DNA from: Octopus vulgaris
Lineage: Eukaryota
DNA: 64,000 nucleotides
Direction of reading: 5' to 3'
Assembly: GCA_951406725.2 (NCBI GenBank)
Contig: OX597837.1
Coordinates: 40,734,001 to 40,798,000, forward strand
Shown: in pieces, positions 4,640 through 45,316 of the stretch
Layout of the letters: each line of letters starts with the position of its first letter
Position numbering within the stretch: the first letter of the stretch is position 1
Made by a program: the position numbers and the translations under genes
Notes under the pieces: model-generated
The model's database searches: none
Told to the model about the DNA's origin: nothing
The model's input: the letters and a program-made list of their open reading frames with translations, nothing else

Positions 4640-4935
4640 TGGTCGAATATATAATAGGTGAGTTCTTTCCTAGCATTCCTAGATTTATGGGAAATATTAT
4701 GTTGATAAGGAAATGAACTTACGATTCTAATGCAGAAATGATCGTCCATAATTGATCCAGTAGACTGTGTGATTTCGTTGTCTTCCTTCTTTTTACCATA
4801 TATGGGTTACAAATACTGTTGTTTGTGGAGACTTATTTTTGTAGTAATAGTAATAGTAGCCCTTTGACTGCTATTTCTAATATTTTCGGTATGTGGTTTA
4901 AGCAACTTGTTGCAAAAAAACCTTTATTATAATTA
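4640..4935 (+). mobile_element. (TA)n-associated Penelope-like/retrozyme-like terminal repeat (paralog of 45020-45316)
   Basis: Colinear with 45020-45316; 3' end resembles 15320-15398; contains an HHR motif; ends in (TA)n. Confidence 0.65.
4696..4752 (+). ncRNA. Minimal type-I hammerhead ribozyme motif, U3-A8 variant (slightly decayed)
   Basis: attatg|TTGATAA|gga...tgc|a GAA|atgatcgt|c|cataat; stem I attatg/cataat. Confidence 0.55.
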
Positions 4936-5719
4936 TATATATATATATATATATATATATATATATATATATATATATATATATATATATCACACGTGAT
5001 CACGTGACCTACCAGACCATCAGATGTTGTTACACATCGCTGGTCACAATGCGTTCGCATTGTTTTAGCCTGTGAATGACGCCACCCCGCTGGCTAAGCG
5101 AGCAGGCCAATATATATATATATATATATATATATATATATATATATACAAACATACATATATACATATATATATATACAAATATACGTATATACATATA
5201 TATATACAAACATACATATATACATATATATATATATATATATATATATATACAAACATATATATATACACATAGACATATACACATATATGCATATATA
5301 TATATATATATATATGCGTATATACATACATATATACATACATAATATATATATATATATAGATAGATATAGATATAGATATACATGCATATATACATAT
5401 ATACATATATATATTTCTATATATATATACGTATGTATATATGCATATATGTGTATATAAGTATGTATATATATATATGTATGTATGTATACTTACGTAC
5501 AGAAACATATAATAACAATGATACATATATATATATATATATATATATATATATATATATATATATATATATAGACACATACATACACACACTCACACAC
5601 AAACGCGCACTCAAACAGAGACATACAAACAAATTGATGTATTATAAAGAGAAATAAAAAATATATATATATATACACCGGTTGTGTGTATAAAACTGTC
5701 GACACCAAAAAACACAACA

Positions 5720-6030
5720 TACAAACACACACACACACACAACACACACACACAAACACAACACACACACACAAACACAACACACACACACACACACAAA
5801 CACAACACACACACACAAACACAACACACACACACACACACACAACACACACACACACACACACACAACACACACACACACACACAAACACAACACACAC
5901 ACACACACACAAACACAACACACACACACAAACACAACACACACACACAAACACAACACACACACACACACACAAACACAACACACACACACAAACACAA
6001 CACACACACACACACAAACACACACTCTTA
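5720..6030. repeat. Higher-order (CA)n-AAACACAA repeat
   Basis: Recurring acaaacacaacacacac unit. Confidence 0.9.
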
Positions 6031-6544
6031 CACACTCACGCCTTAGCATAAACACATCTCCATACACACATCTACACACCCTTACACACACCGTTACACA
6101 CTCAAGCCTTAATATAAACACATCTCCATACACACATCTACGCACCTATTCACAAATGTACATCACATCTTCAAGCAAACCCCCCTCCTCTCTTCCCACA
6201 GTGTATCTCTCTCTCTCTCTCCTGCTGTCAGCACCGTTCGCTAACCATTATTCTCAGAGGATCTTTCGCCATCGCAACTGATACAAATTGACTCCAATTT
6301 TCTCGCCGATTCCATCTAATTTTCGCATCGTTTTTCTCGTCGGCCGAGGAATTTTTATTAAATGATTTCGTTCGTCTTCGAATCGGTTTATTTTCGTTTT
6401 TCGTGTGTGAGACGTCCCAGTTGACCTCTGTTTCGTGTTACGACCAGATTTGACAAGAGTTCAGTACCAGCAGCAGCAGCGGAATCATCAACCACAACCA
6501 GAACAACAACAACAAATAGATGCTAGAAAACTAAAACTAATGGC

Positions 6545-6914
6545 GGTGGTGATGATGATGATGATGGTGGTGGTGGTGGTGGTGGTGGTGATGGTGGATG
6601 GTGGTGGTGGTGGTGGTGGTGGTGGTGGTGGTGGTGGTGATGATGATGATGATGATGATGATGATGGTGATGATGACGATGATGATGTTGACGATGATGA
6701 TGATGACGACGACGATGATGATGATGATGATGATGGTGACGACGACGATGATGATGGTGATGATGACGATGATGATGTTGACGATGATGATGATGACGAC
6801 GATGATGATGATGATGATGATGATGGTGACGACGACGATGATGATGGTGATGATGATGGTGATGATGATGATGATGACGATGGTGATGATGATGATGATT
6901 ATGATGATGATGAT
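6545..6914. repeat. (GGT)n/(GAT)n tract with an internal ~90-bp duplication
   Basis: ggtgatgatgacgatgatgatgttgacg... block occurs twice. Confidence 0.9.
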
Positions 6915-7414
6915 AAAACCCAAGAGATTGTTTTTTGCCGTTTCTAATTTGTTCGATGTTCGATTTCACCAGTTTCGATCTATTCATTAAAAGTACCGCC
7001 AAGAAAAAAATAGAAAAGGAGAATAGACGGGAAAATTGCCGGCGGTTGGTGGCTGCGTGGTAAATGAGTTTAGTTTTGCTTGTTTCTGATCCGACCGTCT
7101 CGTATTTCGTTCGCAGCGCGCGTCGCCTTCGTCCAGTTATCATTTAATGCATCTCGAAGTTGGCGCAAGTTTATGAGCAAAACTTCATCAACACAGGCGC
7201 AAATATGCTTTCGTGCTTAAGAAGCTCACGCATATATATATATATATATATATATATATATATATATATATATAAGGGTGGCTGGAGCAAGTCACAGATG
7301 AATGCTATATATATGTGTATGTGTGTATGTGTGTGTGTGTATGTGTGCGTATGCGTGTGCGTGTGTGTACACACACATACACACACACACACATATATAT
7401 ATATATATATATAT

Positions 7415-7603
7415 CAGTCGCCATGATAGATCGTTTACTACTACACACATTTTTCTCTCCTTGTTTTCTGTGTCCCTTTCTGTAGAAGAGCGTAGGCTCG
7501 AAACGTAAAAGACTTTTTCTATTCCTGAGCGTTATACTAATACATCTGTTTGTTTTGTACACCATCTGTCTTCGTCTTTTGTTTTTTTTCGTAAACTCTC
7601 CCT
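7415..7603 (+). mobile_element. ~190-bp (TA)n-embedded repeat with minimal HHR-like motif
   Basis: Copies at 1-80, 44801-44940(-), 48080-48254; cttt|CTGTAGA|a|gagc gtag gctc|GAA|acgt|a|aaag at ~7476-7511. Confidence 0.7.
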
Positions 7604-7651
7604 ATATATATATATATATATATATATATATATATATATATATATATATAT

Positions 7652-8105
7652 GAATTAAGCAGAAAATGGAGAAATATTGATCAACTACAATTGACTAACA
7701 TCAACAATTATTTTGTAATACAAAACTTTATTCCATCTAACAGCCGTTTCTGCTTCCAATGTCCCACGGTGTTGCCAAAGAAAATTCTGAGAGTAATATT
7801 CATCATATTTTATAACGCATCCGTTCTGGAACATGGAGCTTTGTCAGAGTGAAGAAAAATACATAAAATAAAAGAAAAGAAGAAAAGCCCCAAGAGGAGG
7901 AACGAAAGTTTAATATATTTGAATCACACCAATTTGCAGGCGTGAAGCATTATACAGCAAAATTTTGCATAATTTAAATTTGATTCCTGATAAACTTTTG
8001 TTTATATTTGTTATTGCCTGTATGCTATGAGCATAATAAGCTTACATATGTATGTCCAGGGCTAACATAGGTACGGTATACCGGTAGTAAAACGGATATT
8101 CTTAT
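7652..8105 (-). mobile_element. (TA)n-flanked Penelope-like remnant with decayed long-stem-II HHR (7736-7851)
   Basis: Minus strand: CTGACAA a gctccatgttcc...gggacattggaagc a GAA acggctgt. Confidence 0.45.
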
Positions 8106-43400: not shown

Positions 43401-43465
43401 AATAATTCTAAAGAGGAGATTCAAATAATACAACAAATGTAGACAACGAGATACTTTGTTTCTCA

Positions 43466-43985
43466 GTGGAGGCGCAATGGCCCAGTAATTAGAGCAGCGG
43501 ACTCGCGGTCGTAGGATCGCTGTTTCGATTCCCAGACCGGTCATTGTGAGTGTTTATTGAGTGAAAACACCTAAAGCTCCACGAGGCTCCGGCAGGGGGT
43601 GGTGGTGAACCCTGCTGTACTCTTTCATCACAACTTTCTCTCACTCTTTCTTCATGTTTCTCTTCTACCTGTATTTCAAAGGGCCAGCCTTGTCACACTC
43701 AGTGTCACGCTAAATCTCCTCGAGGACTACGTTAAGGGTACACGTGTCTGTGGAGTGCTCAGCCACTTGCACATTAATAAATGAGCTCCGACGTCAATGG
43801 TGCCACGCTATATCGGCCCCTTTGCCTTTCCCTTGGATAACATCGGTGGCGTGGAGAGTGGAGGCTGGTGTGCATGGGCGACTGCTGGTCTTCCATAAAA
43901 CAACCTTGCCCAGACTTATACCTCGGAGGGTAACTTTCTGGGTGCAATTCCATGGTCATTCGTGACCGAAGGAGGTCACACACAC
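43466..43985 (+). mobile_element. SINE family C with alternative 3' tail
   Basis: Colinear with 12563-12873 then diverges; TSD actttgtttc(t/a)ca at 43453-43465 and 43986-43998. Confidence 0.88.
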
Positions 43986-44321
43986 ACTTTGTTTCACAAT
44001 CAACATCATATCACACCCAACAGCAAGTCAAATGACTATTAGTGGAACAGCGCATGCGCTTTGATTGCAGCATTTAGCTCTTATTTCTTGCAATGTAGGT
44101 GTTTCTAACAAACACCCTCTGTTATATTTAATGGCGTTTATAGTTTTCCTCTTTGGCAAACATTGATTACTGCTGCCTAAATTAAATTTCTACCTATCTA
44201 TCTATCTATCTATCTATCTATCTATCTATCTATCTATCTATCTATCTATCTATCTATCTATCTATCTATCTATCTCTCTCTCTCTCTCTATATATATATA
44301 TATATATATATATATATATAT

Positions 44322-44776
44322 AGGCGCAGGAGTGGCTGTGTGGTAAGTAGCTTGCTGACCAACCACATGGTTCCGGGTTCAGTCCCATTGCGTGGCATCT
44401 TGGGCAAGTGTCTTCTGCTATAGCCTCGGGCCGACCAGTGCCTTGTGAGTGGATTTGGTAGATGGAAGCTGAAAGAAGCCTGTCATATATATATATATAT
44501 ATATATATATATATATATGTGTGTGTGTGTGTGTGTGTGTGTGTGTGTGTGTATATATGTTTGTGTGTCTGTGTTTGTCCCCCTAGCATTGCTTGACAAC
44601 CAATGCTTGTCTGTTTATGTCCCCGTCACTTAGCGGTTCGGCAAAACAGACCGATAGAATAAGTACTGGGCTTACAAAAGAATAAGTCCCGGGGTCGATT
44701 TGCTCGACTAAAGGCGGTGCTCCAGCATGGCCGCAGTCAAATGACTGAAACAAGTAAAAGAGTAAAAGAGTAAGAG
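44322..44776 (+). mobile_element. SINE family A, full length
   Basis: Colinear with 1313-1718. Confidence 0.92.
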
Positions 44777-44800
44777 TATATATATATATATATATATATA

Positions 44801-44940
44801 ACGGGAAGCTTTATAAAAATAAACAAAAGACGAAGGCAGGTGGAATACAAACAAACAATTGTATTAGTATGGCGCTCAGGAATATAAATAAAACAAGTCT
44901 TTTACGTTTCGAGCCTACGCTCTTCAACAGAAAGATACAC
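44801..44940 (-). mobile_element. (TA)n-embedded HHR-like repeat (family of 7415-7603)
   Basis: Minus: cttt CTGTTGA a gagcgtaggctc GAA acgt a aaag. Confidence 0.7.
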
Positions 44941-45019
44941 ATATATATGATTTTTGTTAAGCAGTGTGGATTTTTACAATTCTGTAAATAGTAATAATAT
45001 TTCATAAGCTTAAAGCTCA

Positions 45020-45316
45020 CATATGGTCGAAAATATAGGAGATAAGTTTTTCTAACATTTCTAGATTTATCAGAATATTATGTTGATAAAGGAAATGAAT
45101 CTTATGATTCTAATCCAGAAACGCGTCCATAATTAACCGAAGACTATTTGATTTCATTGTTTTCTTTCTTTTTTTTTTGCCATATGTGAGTTACAAATAT
45201 TGTTGTCTGTGGAGACATATTTTTGTAGAAAAATGAAATAGTAGTCCTTTGGCTGCTATTTCTAAAATTTTCGGTATGTGGTTTAAGCAGCTTGTTGCAA
45301 AAACCCTTTTTGTTAT
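45020..45316 (+). mobile_element. Penelope-like/retrozyme-like terminal repeat (paralog of 4640-4935)
   Basis: Colinear with 4640-4935; ends in (TA)n. Confidence 0.65.
45077..45133 (+). ncRNA. Minimal type-I hammerhead ribozyme motif, U3-A8 variant
   Basis: attatg|TTGATAA|a|gga aat gaatc ttat gattc taa tcc|a GAA|acgcgt|c|cataat; GUC site. Confidence 0.68.

Follow-up and report, generated by a model that had tools for sequence, protein, structure and literature searches.

A window of 64,000 nucleotides from the genome of Octopus vulgaris (contig OX597837.1, positions 40,734,001 to 40,798,000; G000:C24:40734001-40798000) holds seven candidate hammerhead ribozymes whose cores differ at positions 3 and 8 while these two nucleotides stay complementary. 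The question raised by this locus is whether the covariation reflects selection on self-cleavage or some other history of the repeats in which the motifs lie. The initial annotation had proposed seven motifs of type I order, and all seven cores were present at the expected places on the + strand (starting at 4702, 8701, 15147, 15702, 21160, 26013 and 45083) and in that order (7/7), five of the motifs being intact and two damaged. They represent five repeat families, two of which are mutually homologous, and not seven independent cases: A (4702 and 45083), B (15147 and 15702), C (8701), D (21160) and E (26013). We consider it likely that these are type I hammerheads of Penelope-like elements (C and D) and of non-coding tandem repeats that such elements probably mobilised (A, B and E), and that selection on self-cleavage in a few source elements maintained the 3-8 pair while it switched between C-G, U-A, G-C and A-U.

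Covariation between positions 3 and 8

The motifs were searched for with a type I hammerhead descriptor in which positions 3 and 8 are unconstrained, at a threshold score of ≥10. Within the window it returned five matches, all among the seven motifs and all Watson-Crick at 3-8, against a mean of 0.21 and a maximum of 1 in 100 block-wise dinucleotide shuffles of the window. The bare string NTGANNA occurs 530 times in the window, with 27% of the occurrences paired at 3-8. Three weak matches of a looser first descriptor (48406 on the + strand, 61118 and 37356 on the - strand) fail the stricter one and were rejected.

Since the descriptor was composed after the window motifs were known, an independent test was made on 120 ten-kb pieces (1.2 Mb, six of the pieces adjoining the window) chosen by position alone from the genome searched (2.8 Gb, 227 contigs). 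In this sample 28 of the 31 motifs with U4 or C4 cores, and 16 of the 19 motif types, are Watson-Crick at 3-8, against a pairing background of 25.7% (binomial p 1.5e-7 on motif types, a value that overstates independence because motif types share descent). The control pairing 3-7 was seen in 4/31. For U4 cores alone, 21/23 are paired (10 C-G, 5 G-C, 5 U-A and 1 A-U), compared with 4/10 in three shuffled copies of the sample, and four decoy descriptors gave 2, 4, 2 and 6 matches. About three U4 matches per 1.2 Mb are expected by chance, and the unpaired three may be these. The combinations at positions 3 and 8 are not random, and the covariation, proposed by the initial annotation for C3-G8, U3-A8 and G3-C8, extends to A3-U8, which it had missed. 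All four Watson-Crick states (C-G, U-A, G-C and A-U) occur in one genome.

Family D, with G3-C8, comprises at least 4,509 pattern matches; among the first 100 listed, all on contig C1, G3 is found in 100 and C8 in 96, and its loop II exists in several versions while G3 and C8 stay. The A3-U8 hammerhead family (L246:4467-4515, in G000:C26 near 3304470; 667 first-look candidates and 48 exact-pattern matches) has A3 in 48/48 and U8 in 46/48 matches, with the free position 7 varying between T, A and C, and in six loci the motif lies ≈180–280 bp downstream of frames for a GIY-YIG endonuclease. In a midpoint-rooted tree of these endonucleases (20 rows and 244 columns, with long branches, no reference proteins and no hammerhead seen for 6/20 rows) family D is sister to a C3-G8 family (100/100), and the A3-U8 family groups with U3-A8 families (98/100). 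Sister families swap positions 3 and 8 jointly. The C3-G8 sister of D was observed in L236 (- strand, ≈430 bp after the endonuclease frame) and at L256:7768, and has many inverted pairs kilobases apart. Cores with C4 (CCGAAGA and CCGACGA) were seen in L209, L212, L223, L254 and L206, those of L212 and L223 lying 508 bp after an endonuclease frame.

Natural G3-C8 and A3-U8 pairs were not met in the literature searched, which is a weak absence: the 2017 paper of Lünse et al., reportedly, by its title, about numerous small hammerhead variants associated with Penelope-like elements, may contain either. Hammerheads of Penelope-like elements (2014), the extra base after A9 and natural U3-A8 (2011, 2014) are already published. 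All comparisons here and below refer to the available parts of the papers cited. The natural covariation from C3-G8 to U3-A8, and tolerance of U4C in a viroid, were described by Perreault et al. (2011; PMC3088659), where U3-A8 is the only natural 3-8 change named in the text available, whereas G3-C8 and A3-U8 are found here as well. About 1,300 matches of a U3-A8 variant are given for Schistosoma mansoni (PMC4209133), so the published Penelope-type class already admits this pair. Fig. S3 of the same paper holds 56 rows, of which 53 are C3-G8, two U3-A8 and one U3·G8 (Saccoglossus, UUGAAGA); G3-C8 and A3-U8 have 0/56 rows there, while both are family majorities in the octopus. The G3-C8 pair of PMC11167929 is an engineered mutant (C3G/G8C) that partly rescues a Penelope hammerhead in vitro, and that of PMC3884650 is likewise an engineered variant, in contrast to the natural state of family D. 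The parts seen of PMC10085705, PMC2920678, PMC11014351 and PMC6765202 add nothing on natural 3-8 swaps. Natural G3-C8 and A3-U8 as family majorities may therefore be new, subject to the incomplete coverage of this literature.

Each motif was divided, in order, into stem I, the core, the stem II region, GAA, stem III, H17 and stem I'. With the core written as N3 U G A N N8 A, followed by GAAA and UH in type I order, 5/7 motifs pass and the other two are damaged copies; a literal C3 and G8 is found only in B and E, while C is U3-A8, D is G3-C8 and A is mixed. In the intact motifs (8701, 15147, 15702, 21160 and 45083), stems I and II are present along with a stem III that is complementary to itself. 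The family C motif (8698–8735, predicted cut after 8732) is minimal and reads cag TTGAAAA ... ACCGGT A ctg. The first motif of family B (15141–15212, predicted cut after 15206) has a long stem II and reads atagcg CTGAAGA ... ACACCGTGT T cgctat; the second (15696–15767, predicted cut after 15761) equals it except for a single change in stem III, the two being tandem copies identical in 258/259 letters. Family D (21153–21202, predicted cut after 21195) reads tttgtca GTGAACA ... AATATT T tgacaaa and has an extra G after A9. The intact family A motif (45077–45133, predicted cut after 45127) reads attatg TTGATAA ... ACGCGT C cataat. The second motif of family A (4696–4752, U3-A8, predicted cut after 4746; 83% identity between 4702 and 45083) is missing the base of stem II (fold of -0.8 kcal/mol), and that of family E (26010–26050, C3-G8, predicted cut after 26047) pairs in only 2/3 positions of stem I; both are decayed copies from families whose motif passes the descriptor. 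The notion of palindromic stems III that permit dimers agrees with our predictions: self-pairing is possible in 7/7 motifs and is complete, or lacks one central letter, in six (6/6, 8/8 or 8/9 letters; 6/9 is predicted for 15702), with a very weak duplex for D.

In practice a search for CUGANGA alone would return 10/31 of the sampled motifs and miss most of them, as the initial annotation had expected. A scan of the window with Rfam gave 0 matches at the gathering score; by E-value it gave 609 matches, of which the 150 listed are all microsatellite-driven, with no hammerhead among the matches listed. When three motifs were scanned singly, a hammerhead match was obtained for 8701 only (HH9, 19.7 bits vs a threshold of 52).

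The elements that carry the motifs

Genome DNA searches gave 1,197 (A), 431 (B), 1,194 (C), 1,719 (D) and 1,893 (E) first-look candidates, from which the 30 best loci per family were taken, a selection that leans to the window's own versions. The core tallies within families are hand counts over the listed rows. Repeats of the window, which is microsatellite-dense and has 36% GC, were delimited by filtered self-BLAST; repeat finders were swamped by microsatellites.

Judged by their sequence, the 8701 and 21160 motifs lie in the terminal repeats (pseudo-long terminal repeats, pLTRs) of Penelope-like retrotransposons. For family C, locus L151 holds a near full-length element in the order pLTR, reverse transcriptase (RT), GIY-YIG, pLTR, together with an inverted 5' copy, and 17 endonuclease matches were found upstream of the motif, ≈730–760 bp away in the four shown. 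The family D motif follows a GIY-YIG frame at a distance of 343 bp in L153 and 932 bp in L152, and longer relatives of this frame resemble, by eye, full proteins with RT and endonuclease. A CX2-5CXXC linker, defined for the Neptune or Nematis clade in PMC8557442, is visible before GIY-YIG in both the C and D frames, although the tree had no reference proteins to place them. The window itself gave no match to an element protein and contains fragments only. One is the solo pLTR fragment of family C at 8578–8788 (+ strand), flanked by two (TA)n runs, and the other is the fold-back insertion of family D pLTR fragments at 20969–21287 (no strand assigned), with an inverted left copy that carries a 3' tail and a direct right copy that is tailless. 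Elsewhere too, families C and D show tandem or inverted 5'-truncated copies, an optional 3' tail and microsatellite targets, and family D has two alternative 3' ends ≈58 nt apart.

Many D copies (at 21141 in the window; loci L091-L120) start ≈20 nt upstream of the core. In longer copies this point comes just after a pyrimidine-rich stretch ending in CAG; it could be either a splice acceptor or a hot spot of truncation. Long frames of other non-LTR retrotransposons, by eye, are found as adjoining elements in L156:7754-9901 (-) and L151:8151-9299 (+).

Minimal type I hammerheads in the pLTRs of metazoan Penelope-like elements have been described by Cervera and de la Pena (2014; PMC4209133). The octopus motifs share with them the type I order, a short or palindromic stem III, the extra base between 9 and 10.1, and U, A or C at position 17, and the elements in both cases are mostly solo truncated copies with some inverted pairs. 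The PAc hammerhead of the anole Poseidon element (Frangieh et al., 2024; PMC11167929) likewise lies in a pLTR, with an AT-rich target and an optional 3' tail; its tail is tied to two starts of reverse transcription, to which the two 3' ends of family D may be compared.

Families A and B consist of non-coding 555-bp tandem units that are homologous across the whole unit (59% identity over 743 nt, E 9e-22); between them positions 3 and 8 differ together and changes in stem I are compensated. A 555-bp repeat of family A is found in locus L008 and a three-copy array on contig C2, while family B forms arrays of 2–4 units. Family E has a tandem unit of ≈300 bp, with pairs 281–305 bp apart. No reading frame of an element was found in the 30 loci of each of these three families. 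In the window, family A is present as two fragments on the + strand with approximate 5' ends, at 4592–4933 (ending at the (TA)n of 4934, part of the 555-bp monomer) and at 45010–45312 (ending at a TA-rich run). Family B is a retrozyme-like + strand insertion of ≈1.46 units at 15140–15947, which ends at (TA)n 15948, and family E a retrozyme-like + strand monomer of ≈300 bp at 25820–26119, with an approximate 5' end and ending at (TA)n 26120. Beyond the (TA)n run, at 26150–26215, the 3' end of family E recurs as a short inverted copy.

On sequence grounds A, B and E fit the description of non-LTR retrozymes, in that each non-coding monomer of their tandem arrays holds a single type I hammerhead. 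The initial annotation's reference to Penelope-like elements and retrozymes is supported, GIY-YIG or RT frames being present with C and D and non-coding tandem units in A, B and E. Animal non-LTR retrozymes (Cervera and de la Pena, 2020, PMC7229834; Li, Clavereau and Pollet, preprint 10.64898/2026.07.22.740005) share this organization and a low GC content, and a dependence on Penelope-like elements has been proposed for them, as it may hold for A, B and E. The 555-bp monomers of A and B, however, exceed the described retrozyme monomers of ≈300 bp, the mixture of U3-A8 and U3·G8 and of U4 and C4 cores sets family A apart from the published ones, and A, B and E are known here from DNA repeats.

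A 585-nt contig found in two runs corresponds to one 555-nt cycle of family B, a contig that a tandem array of either DNA or RNA would give. Family B and L153 are present in four contig sets whose RNA status is guessed, and in which strand, ends and cut site are not readable. A splice-donor-like GGTAAGT follows the family B hammerhead at 15218–15225, and no spliced joint was found at it in these four sets. Loci L164, L092, L315, L320 and L327 contain an older family with a stem II of the A/B type and mixed 3-8 states (C-G, G·G, A·G and C·A), probably decayed copies.

Probable selection on self-cleavage and its alternatives

Selection on cleavage is favoured because most family majorities are paired at 3-8 and sister families swap the two positions jointly; compensated swaps at a pair that belongs to the active conformation speak for selection on catalysis. 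Several observations pull the other way. Folded alone, only 1/7 motifs shows a clear excess of stability over its own shuffles. Stem III of family D is all A-U, with a predicted duplex of -0.2 kcal/mol and U at H17, and the copy in the window would, by prediction, be hidden within a hairpin of -207 kcal/mol in read-through fold-back RNA. Among 100 copies listed of the 3,261 matches to the C3-G8 sister of D, 96 carry C at position 9, and C4 cores recur in several families. Only about four separate 3-8 switches were counted, by eye, each ending paired. From the literature, activity is low even for dimers (PMC4209133), and for the anole element catalytic mutants left insertion in vitro unaffected and RNA-seq gave no reads terminating at the cut site (PMC11167929).

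Family A adds to these objections. The U3-A8 state that the initial annotation counted at 4702 and 45083 does not hold throughout their family: among the 100 copies listed of 153 matches, 49 are U-A, 45 U·G and 4 C-G at 3-8, with one C·A and one G·G copy, and C4 is found in 28/100. In a tree of 35 copies, poorly resolved (1/32 branches starred) and without U3-A8 or U3·G8 subfamilies, A8 and G8 do not cluster (9 changes vs 10.7 when shuffled; 83/500 shuffles as low). Because the neighbours of the variable core positions are ≈90% conserved or more, these states were probably borne by the source elements. CpG decay was rejected as the origin of the variation: position 8 follows T7 in 31/31 aligned copies, and positions 4-5 are TG in 20, CG in 9, CA in 1 and TA in 1, a pattern that is not symmetric.

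Changes in the core that one would expect to do harm are widespread: U3·G8 (A), C4 and C9 (the D sister) have all spread, which argues that selection has been weak; we infer that it was weak or intermittent. Any selection acted on few source elements, the copies being passive and mostly truncated. The initial annotation's view of a diversified, selected repertoire is thus borne out as far as 3-8 pairing lies far above chance, and "repertoire" overstates what passive, truncated copies represent.

Chance matches in AT-rich, repeat-rich DNA, picked for looking paired, might be suspected from the frequency of NTGANNA and from a descriptor composed after the fact. Yet the five matches of the window against 0.21 in shuffles, the 31 matches of the sample against 2–6 for decoys, and the position of motifs just downstream of GIY-YIG frames in several families refute this explanation, which we regard as extremely improbable. 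A somewhat stronger case can be made that the motifs descend from real ribozymes without present selection, a few founder elements with a paired 3-8 having been copied thousands of times. Copies of B and C and the best D matches are indeed 97–100% identical, so their counts are not independent, and family A is a mixture of paired and wobble states. Against it, G3-C8 and A3-U8 are each two transversions away from the state of their relatives and both land on a pair, 16/19 motif types are paired, and stems are compensated between sister families. Descent from founders alone is quite unlikely to account for the pattern.

The fold, including the 3-8 pair, could instead be kept for a structural role such as protein binding, shaping of the template or marking of an RNA end, with cleavage incidental or absent. 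The catalytic mutants without effect on insertion in vitro (PMC11167929) speak for this, as does the spread of families with A9 changed to C, U3·G8 and C4, and hammerheads as mere parasites of Penelope-like elements have been raised as a possibility (PMC8557442). In turn, the 3-8 pair belongs to the active conformation and is absent in crystal structures of minimal hammerheads (PMC3884650), and U4, G5, A6, GAAA and UH are kept in most families while position 7 and the loops vary. We judge a purely structural role to be unlikely, though less so than the two explanations above, and prefer selection on self-cleavage in a few source elements.

By analogy with known elements, selection on self-cleavage could work as follows. 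Two motifs of a tandem transcript would associate as a dimer via the self-complementary stem III and be cleaved after H17; the element's protein may assist, as has been shown for the anole element (PMC11167929). The element's endonuclease would nick AT-rich DNA, and short fragments, direct or folded back, would result where reverse transcription stopped early or turned back. Within such a dimer the cut site of each copy might be served by the core of its partner, so that a copy mutated at either 3 or 8 could still be processed through an intact sibling and last until a second change brought the pair back, an intermediate stage that the U3·G8 copies of family A would represent. That all four 3-8 pairs are active in nature, and that trans-complementing dimers let the core cross an inactive intermediate at which family A has been caught midway, is a tentative proposal that we hold to be possible rather than probable. 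If it is true, G3-C8 and A3-U8, otherwise swaps made in the laboratory, would be natural in one genome. Whether Penelope-like elements need cleavage becomes directly testable with natural core variants that can be matched to each other, namely D with its C3-G8 sister, A with B, and the U3-A8 with the A3-U8 families; in one in vitro study cleavage was dispensable for insertion (PMC11167929).

Insertion context and other repeats of the window

The motifs had been described as embedded in (TA)n, and this is a general feature of the families: 82/144 distinct copies have their 3' end ≤15 nt from a microsatellite of the TA or CA type, compared with 7.7% of random positions, and 15 further D copies meet a microsatellite after the tail.

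Most of the non-microsatellite repeats of the window belong to two abundant groups of dispersed short repeats that are similar in appearance to short interspersed elements (for example at 1310–1720, 2209–2594, 3338–3749, 31463–31983 and 36187–36961, among others). A 248-bp imperfect palindrome at 63205–63452 is 89% self-complementary, with no hammerhead core found within it, and a fragment of a Mariner-type transposase is present at 59310–59903 (PF01359, E 6.5e-19).

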